From Escherichia coli (lineage in GTDB: Bacteria > Pseudomonadota > Gammaproteobacteria > Enterobacterales > Enterobacteriaceae), in NCBI RefSeq assembly GCF_003790525.1, contig NZ_CP033634.1: a DNA stretch of 64,000 nt, one strand, 5' to 3'. Shown piece after piece: positions 10,410 through 19,126 of this stretch (within the stretch, counting starts at the first letter, position 1; each line of letters opens with the position of its first letter). Both the position numbers and the translations under genes were made by a program. A model generated the notes under the pieces. The model was not told where the DNA came from and searched no databases. It saw only the letters and a list, made by a program, of their open reading frames with translations.

Positions 10410-10475
10410 GATAACAAGATAACAAGATAACAAGATAACAAGGTGTTATCTTGTTATCTCAAGGTGTTATCTTTG
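10410..10475. repeat. Downstream centromere-like iteron array (parC2-like): four direct GATAACAA copies plus inverted TTGTTATC copies
   Basis: gataacaagataacaagataacaagataacaaggtgttatcttgttatctcaaggtgttatc directly downstream of the parAB operon. Confidence 0.7.
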
Positions 10476-10769
10476 TTTTACTTCTGCTATCAATCGTGAT
10501 ACCTCTGTTTTTGATAGTGTTTTAAGTGCTTCTACCGCCGCCCTGACAACATCAGAACGATTCACTCTGCCTTTACCTGAAACCATCTCAGCCGTTATAA
10601 GGGCATCAATGTCTTTTAGGTTTTCTTCAAAAAAAGAAATACTCACTGGTTTTGCTTTGCTTACAACCGATGATTTATCTGATGACTTTTTGGTATTATC
10701 AAGGCCAGCCGTGCCACCGTTAATAAATGCTGCCTCGTCACGAGGTGAAGTGTTTGCTCTATTTCTCAC
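10467..10769 (-). CDS. parB: Small centromere-binding protein (ParB/ParG-like, predicted ribbon-helix-helix C-terminus)
   Basis: 100-aa ORF whose ATG overlaps the parA stop (ATGA); C-terminal RVNRSDVVRAAVEALKTL resembles an RHH DNA-binding fold. Confidence 0.65.
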   Translation of the reverse strand: MRNRANTSPRDEAAFINGGTAGLDNTKKSSDKSSVVSKAKPVSISFFEENLKDIDALITAEMVSGKGRVNRSDVVRAAVEALKTLSKTEVSRLIAEVKQR

Positions 10770-11392
10770 AGAATAACCTCTTTCACTAACGCTTCGATTT
10801 CTTGCTGGGCTTTATCATTTTGCGTTTCAAAAATTGTCATTGATTCGGCCCAAGCATCTCGATGTGCTTTACGATCACATACCCGGGAGTTTGCCAGATG
10901 CATTTCAGGGTAATCCTTAAGTACTTCAGCTGCCTCATTGGCTTCATTAACAAACATATTTGTGGGCGTCATGTTTAAAACGAGATATCCCCGAACATCC
11001 TCATTAAAATCTTTTGCTGCTGTAAAAACGGAGCATGTATGAGGCACAACATCCAGGTCCATCTGAGATGGGCGCAAAGGAGAAATGAATACATCTGCGG
11101 CCATCAATCCACTACGCATTTCTGCGCTATCACGGCCAGCACAGTCTGCAATAACAAAATCATAGGATTTTTCGTGTTCCTTTAACATGGCTTTGATGTT
11201 ACCTGTCGCGCCTGTAACCGGAATATGAGGGAGATCTTCAGGGCGATTGTTGTACCAGGTTAATACTGATTTCTGGTCATCTGCGTCGACAATAATCACT
11301 CTATTGCCTAGTGACATCAGATACGCAGCTATAGATACCGCCAGTGTACTTTTACCTACCCCACCCTTTTGACTACCTAATACTATTATCAT
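10766..11392 (-). CDS. parA: ParA-family partition ATPase (small type Ib, no N-terminal HTH)
   Basis: Deviant Walker A KGGVGKST at residues 9-16; 208 aa. Confidence 0.9.
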   Translation of the reverse strand: MIIVLGSQKGGVGKSTLAVSIAAYLMSLGNRVIIVDADDQKSVLTWYNNRPEDLPHIPVTGATGNIKAMLKEHEKSYDFVIADCAGRDSAEMRSGLMAADVFISPLRPSQMDLDVVPHTCSVFTAAKDFNEDVRGYLVLNMTPTNMFVNEANEAAEVLKDYPEMHLANSRVCDRKAHRDAWAESMTIFETQNDKAQQEIEALVKEVIL

Positions 11393-11403
11393 TATAGCCT
11401 CAT

Positions 11404-11430
11404 ATTAAGTTGTTAAGTTAACAACTTAAT
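11404..11430. promoter_or_regulatory. Palindromic operator-like site in the parA promoter region
   Basis: ATTAAGTTGTTAA/GTTAACAACTTAAT near-perfect palindrome 12 bp upstream of parA start; a related copy lies at about 11470-11495. Confidence 0.5.
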
Positions 11431-11519
11431 ATTGCCATCTGAACGCGAATCATGCAATTATTTTTGTTATATTAACAACTTAACAAGTTATTAAGTATTT
11501 GATTTATAGATTAATTAAT

Positions 11520-11574
11520 ATAACAAGATAACAAGATAACAAGATAACAAGATAACAAGATAACAAGATAACAA
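11520..11574. repeat. Upstream centromere-like iteron array (parC1-like): six to seven tandem GATAACAA copies
   Basis: taacaagataacaagataacaagataacaagataacaagataacaa. Confidence 0.7.
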
Positions 11575-11595
11575 TATTATGGGTGGATTACATAT

Positions 11596-12774
11596 TCATA
11601 ACTGGGCTACTGGCAAATCTGTCCATCTGGTGGTATACGCAGGAGAAAGCATTTCCCGTTTCATTTGCCATTCAGGGGCGGTTCCTCGCCCCGCAAACCA
11701 CACTTTCCCTTTTCCAGACTGGTTCAGTTCATCGAGTGTTTTCATTAACTTTTCGCTGTTTTTACGGGGCTGGATCTCATCAAATAATCCCGGCTGCGCT
11801 ATACCCGATGGTGTGAAATCAGCCAGCATGACTCCTGCCTTCATATAGCGGTACCCTTCACGCCAGACATGGTTTAAGGCTCTGCATGCGGCGGCAATAA
11901 TGTCCCGGCTGTCCTGTGTGGGCAATGGAAGCTTTTCCACAGCGGCATTGCTGTAACAGGGTTCTTTTACTGCAAAGGGGGATGTCCGTACAAATGTCGT
12001 CACCTGCCGGCAATACTGACGTTCCCCACGTAGTTTCTCTGCGGCCCGCTCTGCATACTGAACAACAGCCTGGTGCATGGCATCTTTGTCTGTGATTCGT
12101 TCACCAAAACTGCGACTACAGACAATCTGCTGTTTTGCCGGTGGTGCTTCTTCCAGGGATATGCAGGACTCGCCGTTGAGTTCGCGTACCGTACGCTCAA
12201 GAATGACGCTGAAGTTTTTCCGGATGAATGCCGTGTTAGCCTGCGCCAGCTGCAGTGCTGTGTTAATACCCAGCGCATTCAGCTTTTCCGTCAGTCTGCG
12301 TCCTACTCCCCAGACCTCACCAACTGGCTGCAGCCCCAGTAGCTTCAAGGTCCGATTACGGTTTTCTGCCGTCAGCGCGACCACTCCGGAAAACTGTGGC
12401 CATTGCTTTGTTGCCCACTGTGCACTTTTAGCCAGCGTTTTTGTAGGCGCAATGCCCACCCCCATGGTGAGTCCTGTCCAGCTCTTTACCTGTTCCCTGA
12501 GCTGATGACCAAAAACCTCCGGAGAGATGCAATGATTTATCCCCCGCAAATCAATGAACATTTCATCAATTGAGTAGGGCTCAACTGCGGGAGAAAGCGA
12601 CTCCAGAACAGCCATAACCCGTTGGCTCATGCTGTGGTACAGCGCATAATTGCTGGAAAATACATGTATTTTCTTCTCCAGGCGCATTTGTCTCACCTGA
12701 AACCAGGGCTGCCCCATTCTGATGCCAAGGGCTTTTGCCTCCGGGCTGCGCGCGATCACACAGCCATCGTTATT
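11596..12774 (-). pseudogene. impB: impB/umuC-like error-prone DNA polymerase (Y-family), 3' portion lacking the first 33 codons
   Basis: Translation from NNDGCVIARSPEAKALGIRMGQPWF... aligns with UmuC/MucB residues about 32 onward; upstream in-frame sequence is unrelated and stops. Confidence 0.85.
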
Positions 12775-13182
12775 CACCGTTACACGTTTTACACCCTAAA
12801 ATGTTATGAAAAACCTTTCTGAACAAAGCCTGTAGCCTGATTTGTGTAATTCTCATCGATATGAAGCAATAAGTTGAGAATTTTTTAATATGGGGCTCAT
12901 TAATTCTCAACAATTAAGTGTGGCATAACATTAATGTCTAAAACTTCTCAGTCTCGCATGCCAGATTGGTTCGTAGTCGTCGAGTGGTGATTGTGACAAT
13001 AAAGATCGAAACTTATGCTTTATCAACATGGCTATCTTAGATAAGTGTGCCAACAAAGTTTGAAACACACTTTTGCCCCATTATGAGTTACAACCCAAAG
13101 TTCAAACAGTGATGTTGAGGTAACTTTGATATACAAAAAGTAATGAACAGCAAAAGATAAAAGCTGAGCCAATTTGTTCACA

Positions 13183-14271
13183 CTATTCAGTTAGCATGAG
13201 CTTTGCTTTAAGAAACGTAAGTTTGATGTCATCAGTTTTGGTGAACTTGAACTTACCGTCAGTAGAAGCGTTAAACCTTTCAAAATAGTATTCAAGTAGC
13301 GGATCGTACCTGCCACCGTGAACCCAAGTGTAGAACTTACCAAGTTCATAACGTAACTCTTTATCAAGTTCAGATCTTATTCTCAGCTCACTATCGTTTG
13401 CTAGTTCAACGATGTTCATTTCTTGAAGGTTCGTCTTAATCTCTTCAATCAGAGGTAGGAGGGATTCTTTATACTTATCAGCCAATGGTACAAGGTCAGC
13501 GTCAGTTACTTCCGCTTCAAAAATCATAATCAGGTCGTCAATCTCCCCGTTATAGTAATCGTTATCTAATCGTTTTTCTGACTCAGTACGAAGAACATAG
13601 AGTTGTTCTAAAGGATCTAATTTAGTCTCAATTTTTTCTTTTGAAAGTTTGTGTTGATACTCAACAAACAGCGTTTCAATCCTATCAGCAATAACATCAA
13701 GATACTCATATCGAATTCTGAGAAATTCCAACAGCTCATTGATATTGAGGTTTAACGTTAGGTCTTCTTTACCCACATCTCGACTGTACAAATGAACACT
13801 CAAATCGCCAGTGTTGAAATGACTTTGAAATGGCCAACTTGCGAAACGCTTTGAGTTTTCTTGATTCAGATTTACGGGGTGAGCACCGAAACACGCCCTG
13901 ATAGTTTTAAAATAATTATTATCATCTTCATTAGCGAAGAGGCGATCTTTGAAACATTTCTTTTCACCATAAAACGGATCTTTCTTATCAGTTATAAACA
14001 CTCGATGGAGTTGTTTTATTGACTCGAAAATAAGGTCTATTGAAGAGATCAGAGAGTAGACCTGCATACATCTACTATCTATGTTCTTGTCAAACTCAGG
14101 CGCATTTTCTAAGTGGCGAACAGAGACAGAGATCCAATCCATAGCAGAGCAAACGAGGTTAAAAAGATTCTTACCACCTTTATCTTTGTATATTTGATAC
14201 ACAAAGCTAGAGTTTGAGTTAACTAAGTCTCGAAAATCACTGATTTTATCGTCACTAACAACGTTTCTCAT
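13183..14271 (-). CDS. Hypothetical protein, 362 aa, AT-rich cargo gene divergent from the PIN-like/AbiH-like pair
   Basis: Long uninterrupted ORF in low-GC DNA; contains an R-x5-H motif (RACFGAH) that could be HEPN-like, but no family confidently recognised. Confidence 0.65.
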   Translation of the reverse strand: MRNVVSDDKISDFRDLVNSNSSFVYQIYKDKGGKNLFNLVCSAMDWISVSVRHLENAPEFDKNIDSRCMQVYSLISSIDLIFESIKQLHRVFITDKKDPFYGEKKCFKDRLFANEDDNNYFKTIRACFGAHPVNLNQENSKRFASWPFQSHFNTGDLSVHLYSRDVGKEDLTLNLNINELLEFLRIRYEYLDVIADRIETLFVEYQHKLSKEKIETKLDPLEQLYVLRTESEKRLDNDYYNGEIDDLIMIFEAEVTDADLVPLADKYKESLLPLIEEIKTNLQEMNIVELANDSELRIRSELDKELRYELGKFYTWVHGGRYDPLLEYYFERFNASTDGKFKFTKTDDIKLTFLKAKLMLTE

Positions 14272-14706
14272 TCTCTAATCGCCTTCTAACCAATTGAAAA
14301 TATTATGAAGAATGGCAAAAATGATAGTGATAGTTCTTCAATTCTTCAACTTCTTTTTTGATTTGAAGTGAAGTGATACGCTGGGTTTTGTCACTTAGTT
14401 AGATTTGAACGATGAGGATCTCTAGCCAGTTGTATTGCTAGGCATTATCCGAAGACAAATAGAAGAACTGAACCTCGAAGTAACTTTTATCCTAGGACGT
14501 GCTGAAGCTGGTCTCCGCAAACTTGTGATCTAGGCCAACACGCCTTTGCCCCCAAAACATTTAAAGCTATCCCTCATCACACCTTGCTAACTCGTTACTT
14601 GCCCGAATTTTTGTAATGAGCCAATATGCTATTAGTTGGTTATCCACTTAATTGTTTTATCAATTTATTTGATGACAATTTACACCATGTGTTCAAGGTA
14701 TTGATT

Positions 14707-15807
14707 ATGGAATTACAGACAAGGCTAGTTTTTATCGATACAAGCGCTTTTGAAAAGAAAAACTATCAATTTGGGCAACACGCTCTTGGTCGTCTTCAAG
14801 AACTAATTGAGGATGAGAAAATCCACTTGCTCATTACTGATGTGACAAGGAAAGAGATCGACTCCCATCTCAAACACAAATCTGAAGAAGCAGCTTCTAT
14901 GATAAAGAAGATGCAAAGAGATGCGATGTTCCTAAGAAACACCCCCGACCTTGATTGTCATGGCATCTTCACCAAGATTAAAGGTGATGATATTTATGCT
15001 GTTATCAGTGAAAAATTTGATGATTTCGTCGAAAACGGCTACGTCGAAACAATTGATGTAAGCACTGTTAACCCTCAAGTTGTATTTGATGCTTACTTCA
15101 ACAACCTTCCTCCTTTTGGCAAAGAATCAAAAAAGCACGAGTTTCCTGATGCATTTGCGCTAGAAGCTATTAAACAGGTGAGCTTGGCTAGAGGATATTC
15201 AGCCTATATCGTTAGTGACGACGGCGATATGAAATCATTCTGTGAGAAAGAAGATAACTTCATTCATCTTGAAAATGTCGATGACCTAATTGACTTGATT
15301 GTTCGAAGCGACAAAGCGTACGAAGAACCAGCCAAATTTGCTGATGAAATATTCGAACAACTCCTAGAACAAATCAAAGCGGATGCCCTGCAAGCTCTCG
15401 AAGATGGCGAGTTCAACTATGAAAACGCAGATCCTTTCGATGAGACTATCAATTCTATAGAAATCAACTCGGTGAATGTTGGGAAGAAAAACTTACAGAA
15501 TGTCGATGCCGAGTGGGCTGAATACGAAGTAGAATTTGAGGTGGTTGTTACGGCAGATTATCGATTCTCAGATTATGACCGTTCACCTTGGGACCCTGAA
15601 GACAAGCAATATGTATTCGTCTTGAGTAATGAGTCAACAGTAAAACACAAAGAAACATACACTGCCCACATAACACTTGCCTATACCGATGGATTAAAAG
15701 CTAACGCATACATTGAAGAGTTTTACTTCCAAGATACATATTTTGAGCTGACTGATAATGACTCCGAAGTCATTAGCTTCAAAGAACTAGATATCAACGG
15801 TGAATGA
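14707..15807 (+). CDS. PIN-like domain protein (DUF4935-like), 366 aa
   Basis: N-terminus MELQTRLVFIDTSAFEKKNYQF... resembles PIN-like DUF4935 openings; stop TGA at 15805-15807 lies one base before the start of the next gene. Confidence 0.65.
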   Translation: MELQTRLVFIDTSAFEKKNYQFGQHALGRLQELIEDEKIHLLITDVTRKEIDSHLKHKSEEAASMIKKMQRDAMFLRNTPDLDCHGIFTKIKGDDIYAVISEKFDDFVENGYVETIDVSTVNPQVVFDAYFNNLPPFGKESKKHEFPDAFALEAIKQVSLARGYSAYIVSDDGDMKSFCEKEDNFIHLENVDDLIDLIVRSDKAYEEPAKFADEIFEQLLEQIKADALQALEDGEFNYENADPFDETINSIEINSVNVGKKNLQNVDAEWAEYEVEFEVVVTADYRFSDYDRSPWDPEDKQYVFVLSNESTVKHKETYTAHITLAYTDGLKANAYIEEFYFQDTYFELTDNDSEVISFKELDINGE

Positions 15808-15808
15808 C

Positions 15809-16277
15809 ATGAAGCTATATGTAATAGGTAATGGCTTTGATGTTCATCATGGCCTTGACACTAGGTATACATCTTTTGGGCTTTATCTCAAAAATAACTA
15901 CTGGGAAACTTATGAACTATTGCTCGACTATTACGGGTTTGCTGACTTAGACCCAGATTTTCCAACAACAATGTCAGACCCTTTATGGTCTGAATTTGAA
16001 ACGAGTATGTCACTGCTTGATAAAGATTCAGTTTTGGAAGCAAACATGGATGCAATGCCAAACTATTCTTCAGATGACTTTCGAGACAGAGACCGATACA
16101 CGCTTGAAATTGAGATGGAGCGAATACTTGGCCTTCTAACCACTGAACTGTATAAAGCATTCAAAGAGTTCATTTTGGCTGTACAGTTTCCTCAGTTTGA
16201 TCACAGCCGATCAGTAAACATTGATAGAGACGCTGTTTACCTCACATTCAACTACACAGATACGCTTTCTCAATACT
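15809..16277 (+). pseudogene. AbiH-like abortive-infection protein, N-terminal 156 codons, truncated by IS2
   Basis: MKLYVIGNGFDVHHGLDTRYTSF matches the AbiH family N-terminal signature; reading frame runs into the IS2 left end at 16278, so the ORF-track tail to 16327 is IS2-encoded. Confidence 0.7.
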
Positions 16278-16368
16278 TAGACTGGCTCCCTGAATCTCCA
16301 GACAACCAGTATCACTTAAATAAGTGATAGTCTTAATACTAGTTTTTAGACTAGTCATTGGAGAACAG

Positions 16369-16734
16369 ATGATTGATGTCTTAGGGCCGGAGAAACGCAG
16401 ACGGCGTACCACACAGGAAAAGATCGCAATTGTTCAGCAGAGCTTTGAACCGGGGATGACGGTCTCCCTCGTTGCCCGGCAACATGGTGTAGCAGCCAGC
16501 CAGTTATTTCTCTGGCGTAAGCAATACCAGGAAGGAAGTCTTACTGCTGTCGCCGCCGGAGAACAGGTTGTTCCTGCCTCTGAACTTGCTGCCGCCATGA
16601 AGCAGATTAAAGAACTCCAGCGCCTGCTCGGCAAGAAAACGATGGAAAATGAACTCCTCAAAGAAGCCGTTGAATATGGACGGGCAAAAAAGTGGATAGC
16701 GCACGCGCCCTTATTGCCCGGGGATGGGGAGTAA
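16369..16734 (+). CDS. insC: IS2 OrfA (InsC)
   Basis: [56 protein letters not shown]... Confidence 0.9.
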
Positions 16735-17597
16735 GCTTAGTCAGCCGTTGTCTCCGGGTGTCGCGTGCGCAGTTGCACGTCATTCTCAGACGAACCGATG
16801 ACTGGATGGATGGCCGCCGCAGTCGTCACACTGATGATACGGATGTGCTTCTCCGTATACACCATGTTATCGGAGAGCTGCCCACGTATGGTTATCGTCG
16901 GGTATGGGCGCTGCTTCGCAGACAGGCAGAACTTGATGGTATGCCTGCGATCAATGCCAAACGTGTTTACCGGATCATGCGCCAGAATGCGCTGTTGCTT
17001 GAGCGAAAACCTGCTGTACCGCCATCGAAACGGGCACATACAGGCAGAGTGGCCGTGAAAGAAAGCAATCAGCGATGGTGCTCTGACGGGTTCGAGTTCT
17101 GCTGTGATAACGGAGAGAGACTGCGTGTCACGTTCGCGCTGGACTGCTGTGATCGTGAGGCACTGCACTGGGCGGTCACTACCGGCGGCTTCAACAGTGA
17201 AACAGTACAGGACGTCATGCCAGGAGCGGTGGAACGCCGCTTCGGCAACGATCTTCCGTCGTCTCCAGTGGAGTGGCTGACGGATAATGGTTCATGCTAC
17301 CGGGCTAATGAAACACGCCAGTTCGCCCGGATGTTGGGACTTGAACCGAAGAACACGGCGGTGCGGAGTCCGGAGAGTAACGGAATAGCAGAGAGCTTCG
17401 TGAAAACGATAAAGCGTGACTACATCAGTATCATGCCCAAACCAGACGGGTTAACGGCAGCAAAGAACCTTGCAGAGGCGTTCGAGCATTATAACGAATG
17501 GCATCCGCATAGTGCGCTGGGTTATCGCTCGCCACGGGAATATCTGCGGCAGCGGGCTTGTAATGGGTTAAGTGATAACAGATGTCTGGAAATATAG
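16692..17597 (+). CDS. insD: IS2 OrfB (InsD), DDE transposase; expressed with OrfA by programmed -1 frameshift
   Basis: ORF overlaps orfA in the -1 frame; contains the IS3-family DDE region ([17 protein letters not shown]). Confidence 0.9.
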
Positions 17598-17705
17598 GGG
17601 CAAATCCAGTGATATCCAATTCATTCAGTCTGTAAACACAATAGTGGACATTCTCACATTGTCAAACGTGTATAGTTAGAGAGTGGAAGTAAAAGTGTAT
17701 GGGTG

Positions 17706-17804
17706 GTTATTGCTGAGTACGATGACCGGTTCGTTGCGAAGGTCCGGGCGGAAAACTTTTTCACATGAGGCGTAGAAACTGTTGATATCAGCCAGTGCAA
17801 ACAT
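17706..17804 (-). pseudogene. impB: impB 5' fragment (first 33 codons) separated from the rest by the 4.9-kb insertion
   Basis: Minus strand reads ATG TTT GCA CTG GCT GAT ATC... = MFALADINSFYASCEKVFRPDLRNEPVIVLSNN; start overlaps impA stop (TGATG). Confidence 0.8.
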
Positions 17805-18241
17805 CAGCGTAACTCCCGCGTCCTGTGTATCACGTGAGTGACAACACCAAAAATACAGATGTTTTCCGGATACAGTGTGCGGAACTCCGGGCTGTCTGAA
17901 ACCGGCTCCAGTGCCGGGCGTGGGCGCAACAGCAGTCGTTTGACGGTGAACTCACCATCGATCTCAGCGATAACGATGTCCCCGTGTTGTGGTTTTTCGG
18001 CCCTGTCCACTACCAGCAGATCACCATTCTGCACGCCAGCCTGGTTCATCGATTCACCGCTGGCGCGCAGAAAGAAGGTGGCTGCAGGTCTGCTGATGCA
18101 ATAGCTGTTCAGATCCAGTTCCTGCTCAGCATAATCAGTGGCAGGCGAAGGAAAACCGGCCAGGCAACGATCGGCAAACAACGGTCGCACGTAACTGTCA
18201 TTGCCTGAAGGGTCAGCCGGACGGTGATAAACGGTACTCAT
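17804..18241 (-). CDS. impA: ImpA (UmuD/MucA-like, LexA-type S24 peptidase fold)
   Basis: 145 aa; FPSPATDYAEQELDLN and ASGESMNQAGVQNGDLLVVD align with UmuD. Confidence 0.9.
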   Translation of the reverse strand: MSTVYHRPADPSGNDSYVRPLFADRCLAGFPSPATDYAEQELDLNSYCISRPAATFFLRASGESMNQAGVQNGDLLVVDRAEKPQHGDIVIAEIDGEFTVKRLLLRPRPALEPVSDSPEFRTLYPENICIFGVVTHVIHRTRELR

Positions 18242-18486
18242 GCTGCAGGCAGCCAGCTGTCGTCCTGCCAGATTTCTTCCAGCAGAGACAGGATACGTTC
18301 TTTATCCTTGTCGTTGCGGGCTCCTGTGACAGATACAGACGGGGCGCTGCCCTGGTCTATACGCAGCCAGATTTCCGGGTAGTGTGGTTTCAGACGTCGT
18401 TCGATTTCATTCTGTAGCGCCTGAAGTGTGCCTGATTTGAGGTTTTTTGTGCTCTGGCGGTCGAAAAGAATTTCAATGCGGATCAT
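18238..18486 (-). CDS. impC: ImpC, small first gene of the impCAB operon
   Basis: 82-aa product MIRIEILFDRQSTKNLKSGTLQALQNEIERRLKPHYPEIW...; RBS GGGAG upstream; overlaps impA start by 4 bp. Confidence 0.8.
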   Translation of the reverse strand: MIRIEILFDRQSTKNLKSGTLQALQNEIERRLKPHYPEIWLRIDQGSAPSVSVTGARNDKDKERILSLLEEIWQDDSWLPAA

Positions 18487-18509
18487 GTTCTCATCTCCCT
18501 TTTCTTTTG

Positions 18510-18525
18510 CTGTATGTATATACAG
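18510..18525. promoter_or_regulatory. LexA box (SOS operator) upstream of impC
   Basis: CTGTATGTATATACAG fits CTGT-N8-ACAG, 24 bp upstream of the impC ATG. Confidence 0.75.
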
Positions 18526-19126
18526 TATTCTAATAACTGAATCCACACACAGTCAAATGTCATTATTGTGACTAAAAAACGCTCAATTCTCTGAGGGTGT
18601 GGCTGTATGCCTGCTGTGGACTGCTGTGTCCAGCTTATCCACAGCATTTTGCGCACGGTTCTGTGAATAAAATACCTGGTTACCCAGGCCGTGCCGGCAC
18701 GTTAACCGGGCTGCATCCAATGCAAGTGTGTCGCTGTCGCCGGCATCCTCACCAGGTCACTCAGCAGTCAGGGAGAAAAATGGCGGATGAAGTATGACGG
18801 AGACGGTCGGGCAAGTGCCCGTTTCTTTTCCGACAAAGGATGTCGCCGTGCTCCTCTTTTTACTGCGCCGGCTGACGCGGCGCGGCATAAACGCTGCCTG
18901 TGGTCAGTGTCCCGCGTCCGGCGGGCACGGGACGGGCGCTTTTACCGCTCCCGGCTGGCACCGGTGACAGTGTACGCCAGCCCGTCGCCCTTTTCTGATG
19001 AACGCCCTTCAAGCCGCTTTCGCGAATGAAAGGGACATCTTATTCGGTCTTTACGCTGGAGAGTTACTTTGGAAGACTGCGTCAACACGATGATAAGCGT
19101 ACAAAGCCATTGTTAAGGGATCCTCT

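Follow-up and report, generated by a model that had tools for sequence, protein, structure and literature searches.

A very probable IS2-truncated copy of the strand-biased circularizing integrative element SE-SenBL10 splits impB on an Escherichia coli plasmid

The insertion in impB

The DNA under study is a stretch of 64,000 nucleotides from Escherichia coli (contig NZ_CP033634.1 of assembly GCF_003790525.1), referred to in the following as the window. Its impB gene on the minus strand, which encodes an error-prone polymerase of the plasmid, is interrupted exactly at 12774/12775 and 17705/17706 by an insert that comprises exactly 12775-17705 (4,931 bp). This insert is, with high probability, an IS2-truncated, dead copy of SE-SenBL10, a 10,159-bp strand-biased circularizing integrative element (SE). 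The SE class, its mechanism, SE-SenBL10 itself, and the umuC hotspot have already been published, and the window adds one more copy eroded by an insertion sequence (IS). The junction on the side of the SE gene intA, at the right end of the insert, is called attL and the other one attR; hexamers are given on the impB/umuC coding strand unless a strand is stated. The features of the split gene, the ends, and the IS2 copy are the following, from right to left:

17706-17804, minus strand: 5' part of impB, 33 codons, overlapping the impA/umuD stop codon (list of open reading frames, ORFs, and comparison of the joined protein)
17706-17711, minus strand: hexamer GTTATT (AATAAC) adjoining terminus C, the target's own; equals the empty-site hexamer in all five targets tested
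17705-17689, minus strand: terminus C, the intA-side end, reading inward CACCCATACACTTTTAC
17609-17705, minus strand: remnant of the intA-side arm (attL side), 97 bp, non-coding, with terminus C (17689-17705) and the motif TACACGTTTGAC (17661-17672); 100% identical to 19077-19173 of the pSC138 locus
16278-17608, plus strand: IS2, 1,331 bp, replacing 6,559 bp of the element (comparison with a full-length copy; annotated as "IS2 family transposase" in pGZM7d)
12775-13182, no strand: C'-end arm (attR side), non-coding, without an ORF; its first 326 bp are common to a Shewanella variant
12775-12792, plus strand: terminus C', the end far from intA, CACCGTTACACGTTTTAC; the boundary is the same in every copy fetched, and the sequence is an imperfect inverted repeat of terminus C
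12769-12774, minus strand: hexamer GTTATT (AATAAC on the impB strand) adjoining C', the attR footprint, presumably donor-derived; differs among other impB copies
11596-12774, minus strand: 3' part of impB, codons 32/34 to the stop codon, downstream of the insertion (ORF list and comparison of the joined protein)

The split of impB at these positions had been proposed in an initial annotation made from the letters of the window, and it is borne out by the ORFs and by the joined protein. After one hexamer is dropped, joined ImpB is identical to intact ImpB of 424 amino acids (aa) up to residue 408; the final 15 residues differ because the plasmid backbones diverge there. The GTTATT hexamers named in that annotation are present at both junctions, and the proposed empty site with a single AATAAC exists: the 600-nt rejoined site with one GTTATT matches NZ_CP043035 and NZ_CP080262, plasmids with intact impB, at 100%, and in 2,277 plasmid records the match extends over 80% or more of this site. 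The insert inactivates impB, and the plasmid has lost its error-prone polymerase gene by this insertion.

The ends of the insert are imperfect inverted repeats, as had been suspected. The alignment of termini C and C' (17 and 18 nt) has one gap and matches at 15 of 18 positions. The core motif recurs a third time, as TACACGTTTGAC, 27 bp inward of the right end; this copy does look like one of several recombinase-binding sites, which is how it had been interpreted. The AT-rich interior also contrasts with the plasmid backbone: the GC content is 37.8% for the insert without IS2 and 53.1% for IS2, compared to 46.6% and 52.4% for the 5-kb flanks.

Full-length copies and assignment to SE-SenBL10

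The left 3.5 kb of the insert recur with 99.5-100% identity in 23 plasmid records, and most of these matches run on past the point at which the window has IS2. They belong to a full-length element of 10,159 bp and 38.25% GC with the same termini, which is found in pSC138, in a Klebsiella plasmid, and in E. coli chromosomes and plasmids. Identical termini delimit every full-length copy fetched at exact positions (10 plasmid and 4 chromosomal loci), and the inverted-repeat ends of the insert are therefore not a matter of chance. The initial annotation had allowed that the two impB pieces might not be contiguous and that the terminal repeat might be a coincidence; the site joins, and the ends recur in full-length copies.

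In intact copies, terminus C is followed by intA-tfp-intB-srap, then by the cargo (abiH, a gene for a PIN_12-domain protein, and an ORF of 362 codons) and terminus C'. The core genes form one overlapping block adjoining the right-hand terminus and encode IntA (509 aa), Tfp (616 aa), IntB (663 aa), and Srap (146 aa). IntA is a tyrosine recombinase (Pfam Phage_integrase, E 5e-7), and Tfp has a mere trace of the Phage_integrase domain (Pfam, 0.12). No domain was found for IntB in Pfam, and NCBIfam gave nothing useful for Tfp, IntB, and Srap. Tyrosine recombinases share the pattern R, H-x-x-R, H...Y. IntB contains GVRVGE, HDFRRTF, and KHRNINMSEYY, all of which are conserved in the IntB of SE-6945-type elements, and from these motifs and this homology IntB is predicted to be a recombinase. 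A tblastn search with the 616-aa Tfp finds the Vibrio alfacsensis plasmid copy of the SE-6945-type element that carries blaGMA-1. Over nearly the full length, the identities to this set are 51% for IntA, 37% for Tfp, 40% for IntB, and 49% for Srap.

Members of the SE class have a core block intA-tfp-intB-srap at the left end, which the full-length copies contain and of which the window copy has lost all four genes, and imperfect terminal inverted repeats of 13-19 bp (motifs C and C'), which the window has retained. The element has also been listed by the authors of the class (pSC138 block and SE-SenBL10; Additional files 3, 4, and 8). The tfp-srap block of pSC138 was included in the published survey of SE synteny blocks (Idola et al. 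2023), in which SE-SenBL10 is entered with 10,159 bp and 38.19% GC from the chromosome of Salmonella BL10 (Mob DNA 14:7, Additional file 8). The accession of its Tfp, WP_099949651.1, is also encoded by NZ_CP025339, a plasmid of the same strain, at 78866-80716, and NZ_CP025339 is 99.8% identical over the cargo part of the window and 99.9% identical over the core module. Equal length, near-equal GC content, and the same hosts (Salmonella, E. coli plasmids and chromosomes) thus connect SE-SenBL10 with the full-length relatives. In contrast, the window copy lacks 6,559 bp, has IS2 in their place, and resides in impB of a plasmid rather than in a Salmonella chromosome.

The initial annotation had tried to place the end structure among IS families; an IS or transposon that has lost its transposase does not agree with full-length copies encoding two tyrosine recombinases together with Tfp and Srap. 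A related explanation would be a non-autonomous transposon of an unidentified DDE family that is mobilized in trans and produces a true 6-bp target-site duplication by staggered cuts. The imperfect terminal inverted repeats, the identical hexamers of the window, and the fact that, IS2 aside, no recombinase is encoded within the insert would agree with such a transposon. Its probability is nevertheless close to negligible: copies bounded by these termini have genes for tyrosine recombinases and, save secondary IS insertions, none for a transposase, and the insertions are specific for one codon pair of umuC homologues, unlike those of most DDE elements. The 10,159-bp copies have no transposase between the repeats other than such secondary IS insertions, and most copies are not flanked by duplicate hexamers.

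Junction hexamers and insertion mechanism

Junctions were read in 17 sets (16 fetched loci and the window), and both junctions are present in 16 of them. In impB copies, attL is always AATAAC. The attR hexamer is AATAAC in the window, pGZM7d, and pSY3626_124k, AATAAT in three full copies and in a pJJ1887-type remnant, and AACAAC in one copy (E. coli 97.3 plasmid). Chromosomal umuC of E. coli has AATAAT at attL and AATAAC at attR, and K-12 has a single AATAAT. A umuC homologue on a Klebsiella plasmid has AATAAC at attL and AACAAC at attR, and one on a Salmonella plasmid has AACAAC and AATAAC, respectively. In pap2 near mcr-1, attL is TTCAAT and attR is AATAAC, the latter being unrelated to the target. 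Altogether, 11 of 16 junction pairs consist of unequal hexamers, among them TTCAAT and AATAAC of pap2, which further disagrees with the staggered cuts of a DDE transposon.

The hexamer beside the intA-side end is the target's own in all sets, with empty sites confirmed for five targets. Predicted empty sites in which the attL hexamer is kept and the attR hexamer is dropped are matched at 100% over 394-600 nt for impB, pap2, and the Salmonella and Klebsiella plasmid umuC homologues. As these attL-only sites correspond to intact genes, the element adds itself and six foreign bases at attR. Thus, the claim that GTTATT is a 6-bp target-site duplication has to be given up: the hexamers differ in other copies, and only the intA-side one is native. 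By comparison with these copies, the GTTATT pair of the window would be an apparent duplication that really consists of the target hexamer and a donor footprint. An apparent 6-bp duplication is consequently no basis for assigning such inserts to a transposase family.

The source of the six bases can be traced in two strains. In E18 and SCU-106, the plasmid attR (AATAAT) equals the attL hexamer of the chromosomal copy of the same strain, and both copies have private variants in common, namely a frameshift in abiH for E18 and variant accessions of the PIN protein, IntB, and Tfp for SCU-106. These sequences point to moves from chromosome to plasmid. In experiments with SE-6945, the circle carried the six donor-site bases next to C, and these were placed beside C' at the new site (PMC9345347). 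An attL that keeps the 6 bp of the target and an attR that receives the 6 bp of the donor are also what the comparison of copies gives for the present element, and the two donor-recipient pairs within single strains agree with this. The attR hexamer is thus a donor tag that can trace the replicon from which a copy was donated, as in E18 and SCU-106.

By analogy with related SEs, integration would proceed via a circular copy that carries the 6 bp beside terminus C of the donor site. The circle would recombine with a target, in most cases codons 32-33 (Asn-Asn) of a gene of the umuC family, leaving the target hexamer beside C (attL) and the donor hexamer beside C' (attR). Since both hexamers of the window are AATAAC, the donor of this copy would also have had AATAAC, as found in impB and in one Klebsiella plasmid umuC homologue. 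After integration, IS2 activity would have deleted 6,559 bp, either by adjacent deletion or by recombination of two IS2 copies.

Tyrosine recombinases in the full-length copies and site-specific insertion into a conserved gene would also be expected from a classical integrase-type island or a GInt/ILE element (ginABCD), for which GTTATT would be the att core of a reciprocal recombination within a short identical sequence. GInt/ILE elements even insert into rulB, the umuC homologue of pWW0, at a GAT codon directly 3' of the corresponding hexamer. However, recombination within such a core should leave the target's sequence at either junction, and the junctions show otherwise. Homology connects all four proteins with the SE set (IntA 51% and Srap 49% versus the SE-6945-type), and according to the authors of the SE class, SE and GInt genes have no blast similarity to each other. 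Furthermore, the score of pSC138 is 1 in the published SE table but 0 in a second listing of Additional file 4, which is taken as the GInt sheet. The element has no ginA-ginB-ginC-ginD module, a statement based on SE homology and the published scoring rather than on a comparison with Gin profiles. An island of this kind is therefore regarded as very improbable.

Some points weigh against the reading as a truncated SE-SenBL10. The identity with this particular element is suggested by length, GC content, the Tfp accession on the plasmid of the same strain, and the LT2 reference locus given for SE-SenBL10, 2079190-2082249, which we take to be umuDC. The window alone does not separate a true 6-bp duplication from a donor footprint, both hexamers being AATAAC. 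In the SE class, recombination of attL with attR yields a nicked circle from one strand and leaves no empty site behind; these properties would hold for this member by transfer from related SEs. Finally, the order of IS2 events may have been either a one-ended deletion or a recombination between two copies.

IS2 and loss of the recombination genes

Comparison with the pSC138 locus reveals the extent of the loss. Of the window insert, 3,503 bp match 9015-12517 with three mismatches, and 97 of 97 bp match 19077-19173; IS2 replaces the 6,559 bp in between. The deletion, with one endpoint midway in abiH and the other 3 bp upstream of the start codon of intA, has removed the 3' half of abiH as well as srap, intB, tfp, and intA. 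Neither the four core genes nor further termini were detected elsewhere in the window. The sole transposase within the insert is that of IS2, as had been noted; this IS2 marks the 6,559-bp deletion and is not simply nested. IS2 usually creates a 5-bp duplication. The flanks of the present copy are ATACT and GTGAT without a 5-bp direct repeat, which fits an adjacent deletion by IS2 or a recombination between two IS2 copies.

The relic retains the two termini and, of the cargo, two intact genes and one half of abiH. It is unable to move by itself, and its description as a defective, non-autonomous foreign cargo element was correct in that all four recombination genes are lost. The relic might still be mobile as a mini-SE if IntA, Tfp, IntB, and Srap of a full-length SE-SenBL10 in the same cell could circularize and reinsert the 4.9-kb derivative. 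Such helpers exist in E. coli strains with chromosomal and plasmid copies, and the relic has kept both termini and the subterminal repeat. However, merely 97 bp of the intA-side arm are left, and in the work of the authors of the SE class, complementation in trans failed for intA and intB knockouts, from which they suggested that an intact attL-operon structure is needed. In addition, the IS2-bearing derivative was found in one plasmid record only, the 90-kb IncFIA plasmid pGZM7d, which has exactly the structure of the window at the same impB site. A functional mini-SE is thus improbable; if it existed, it would be the first derivative of the SE class that resembles a miniature inverted-repeat transposable element (MITE).

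Cargo genes

The cargo that remains in the window consists of three reading frames:

13183-14271, minus strand: ORF of 362 aa, uncharacterized conserved family (386 homologues)
14704-15807, plus strand (longest ORF from 14626): PIN_12-domain protein (Pfam PF16289, E 4.8e-36; "PIN domain-containing protein" in relatives)
15809-16277, plus strand: abiH, first 156 of 319 codons, cut by IS2 (tblastn 100% over residues 1-156 only; PADLOC AbiH)

AbiH is a recognized abortive-infection family (PADLOC), and the intact protein of relatives (319 aa) matches the PADLOC AbiH model with E 1e-29. An intact AbiH is missing from the window, which encodes residues 1-156 of 319. The PIN_12 and 362-aa proteins matched no known defence model in PADLOC. 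Of the Abi-like proteins proposed initially, half of an AbiH thus stands, whereas the second has a PIN_12 domain, and no family was matched by the 362-aa ORF. Likewise, the suggested phage-defence cassette is defence-type cargo, but it is damaged, with abiH halved.

The 362-aa protein had no match in PADLOC, NCBIfam, Pfam, PHROGs, and PDB. Its 386 homologues come mostly from marine Gammaproteobacteria. The predicted structure is mainly helical with a pLDDT (predicted local distance difference test) of 90.5, and its structural matches are uncharacterized proteins only. The family has an invariant R125-x5-H131 pair, which resembles the HEPN Rx4-6H motif and may serve as a lead, no more.

Targets, distribution, and decay of other copies

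Besides impB and chromosomal umuC, full-length copies occupy further umuC homologues and, in one case, pap2. With two exceptions, the sites read correspond to codons 32-33 of umuC-family genes (...V-L-S-N-N / D-G-C...). These exceptions are pap2 on pEC111 and the third junction of Shewanella inventionis, which is not of the ..VLSNN type. On pEC111, an IncX4 mcr-1 plasmid, the full-length copy at 1416-11574 lies in pap2 directly downstream of mcr-1. In pSC138, the flank on the intA side (19174-19210 of the locus) is the 5' part of an impB identical to that of the window, and the other flank (8980-9014) belongs to a different umuC homologue. These flanks suggest that two replicons were joined via recombination between two element copies.

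At least 80% of the core module is present in 16 plasmid records, and the same holds for 24 of the 5,426 complete E. coli genomes. The latter copies mostly reside in chromosomal umuC, as in NCTC86, and several E. coli strains hold a chromosomal and a plasmid copy together. The NCTC86 chromosome carries a full-length copy; this strain is presumably a nineteenth-century isolate, and the element would then predate the antibiotic era in E. coli.

With an element-only query, the first 276 bp of the C' arm were found in 51 of 72,556 plasmid records. In 29 of these, the identity is at least 99%, with 24 records covering the full 276 bp (full or truncated copies) and five partial ones (four Proteus terrae, one Salmonella). 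The other 22, at 97.5-97.8%, are pJJ1887-type F plasmids with 276 bp of the arm abutting IS5. In pJJ1887-5 (locus 4076-4351) and 21 similar F plasmids, the 3' part of impB is followed by the hexamer ATTATT, 276 bp of the C' arm, and then the end of IS5. This remnant is an older, more diverged relic (97.8%) in a plasmid lineage of uropathogenic E. coli.

Loss of the recombination module has occurred independently in two further cases. In the E. coli 97.3 plasmid, an IS5-associated deletion has removed the module from srap to intA. In plasmids of Morganellaceae (Providencia, Proteus), the break lies 177 bp after abiH; in one plasmid of the Providencia/Proteus group, the C' flank is adjoined by a SIR2 gene and two more genes for tyrosine recombinases. 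SE-SenBL10 is thus repeatedly eroded by IS elements, IS2 in the window and IS5 in two other lineages, in addition to the unexplained truncation in Morganellaceae. Because of this repeated erosion, relics without recombinase genes are to be expected in annotation.

A single scan of species-representative contigs with the 21-nt C terminus detected Shewanella inventionis only, a result that carries little weight for host range. This species has several copies in which the core and ends are 99.9% identical and the cargo is a type III restriction-modification system. At least three attL junctions were read there, two of them in umuC-like genes (..VLSNN). The Shewanella core with this cargo indicates that defence cargo is swapped on one backbone. 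The SE-SenBL10-type element is probably of marine origin.

Comparison with related elements

The experimentally characterized elements SE-6945 and SE-6283 of Vibrio alfacsensis have the same gene order, with proteins of 545, 614, 671, and 161 aa in the SE-6945-type copy compared to 509, 616, 663, and 146 aa here. Protein identities of 37-51%, imperfect terminal inverted repeats, and a donor hexamer at attR are further common properties. In contrast, their termini read ...GTA instead of ...GGTG, they integrate into T-rich sites and bcp instead of codons 32-33 of umuC, and they carry a beta-lactamase gene instead of defence genes.

The gene umuC has been proposed as an integration hotspot of the tmexCD-toprJ 'int-int-hp-hp' units, which are SEs. 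These have an SE-type module and prefer umuC or rumB homologues on plasmids and integrative and conjugative elements. They belong to another SE lineage with a resistance-nodulation-division (RND) efflux pump as cargo and reported footprints such as TATCGA. A Tfp homologue on a Raoultella IncHI2 plasmid was considered as a tmexCD element in umuC and rejected, because it belongs to a different SE with genes similar to those of a cyclic-oligonucleotide-based antiphage signaling system (CBASS), located outside umuC. This SE (locus 9882-24000; intA-tfp-intB-srap) carries SAVED, nucleotidyltransferase, and ThiF/JAB-type genes and is a further case of defence cargo on the SE class.

The ILE/GInt elements in rulB of pWW0 (Rhodes et al. 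2014; Bardaji et al. 2017) resemble the present element in their moves from chromosome to plasmid into a umuC homologue and in an integrase gene about 100 bp inside the 5' junction. They differ in having three tyrosine recombinases and a small fourth gene without blast similarity to SE genes, a reported 3-bp repeat, and Pseudomonas hosts. In rulB of pWW0, their published insertion point is the GAT repeat at 1489-1491 of the locus (record 6488-6490), the Asp codon right after the position of the SE-SenBL10 hexamer. As this GAT adjoins the hexamer, two unrelated classes of tyrosine-recombinase elements use the same few bases of Y-family polymerase genes.

Tn554 of Staphylococcus is similar in having two tyrosine recombinases and a small TnpC, in its site specificity, and in leaving 6 bp from the donor flank without a true target duplication. 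It differs in the lack of a Tfp counterpart, its Firmicutes hosts, and unrelated sequences. The present element does not have the tnpA-tnpB-tnpC organization of Tn554-like elements: a 616-aa Tfp is encoded between intA and intB, and all hosts found are Gammaproteobacteria.

Sequences next to impB

The octamer ATAACAAG is repeated in tandem at 11521-11584, with seven perfect copies and one imperfect copy. The array separates a ParA-family gene (minus strand, 10766-11392) from the 3' end of impB, and the octamers are probably iterons of a partition site or an operator.

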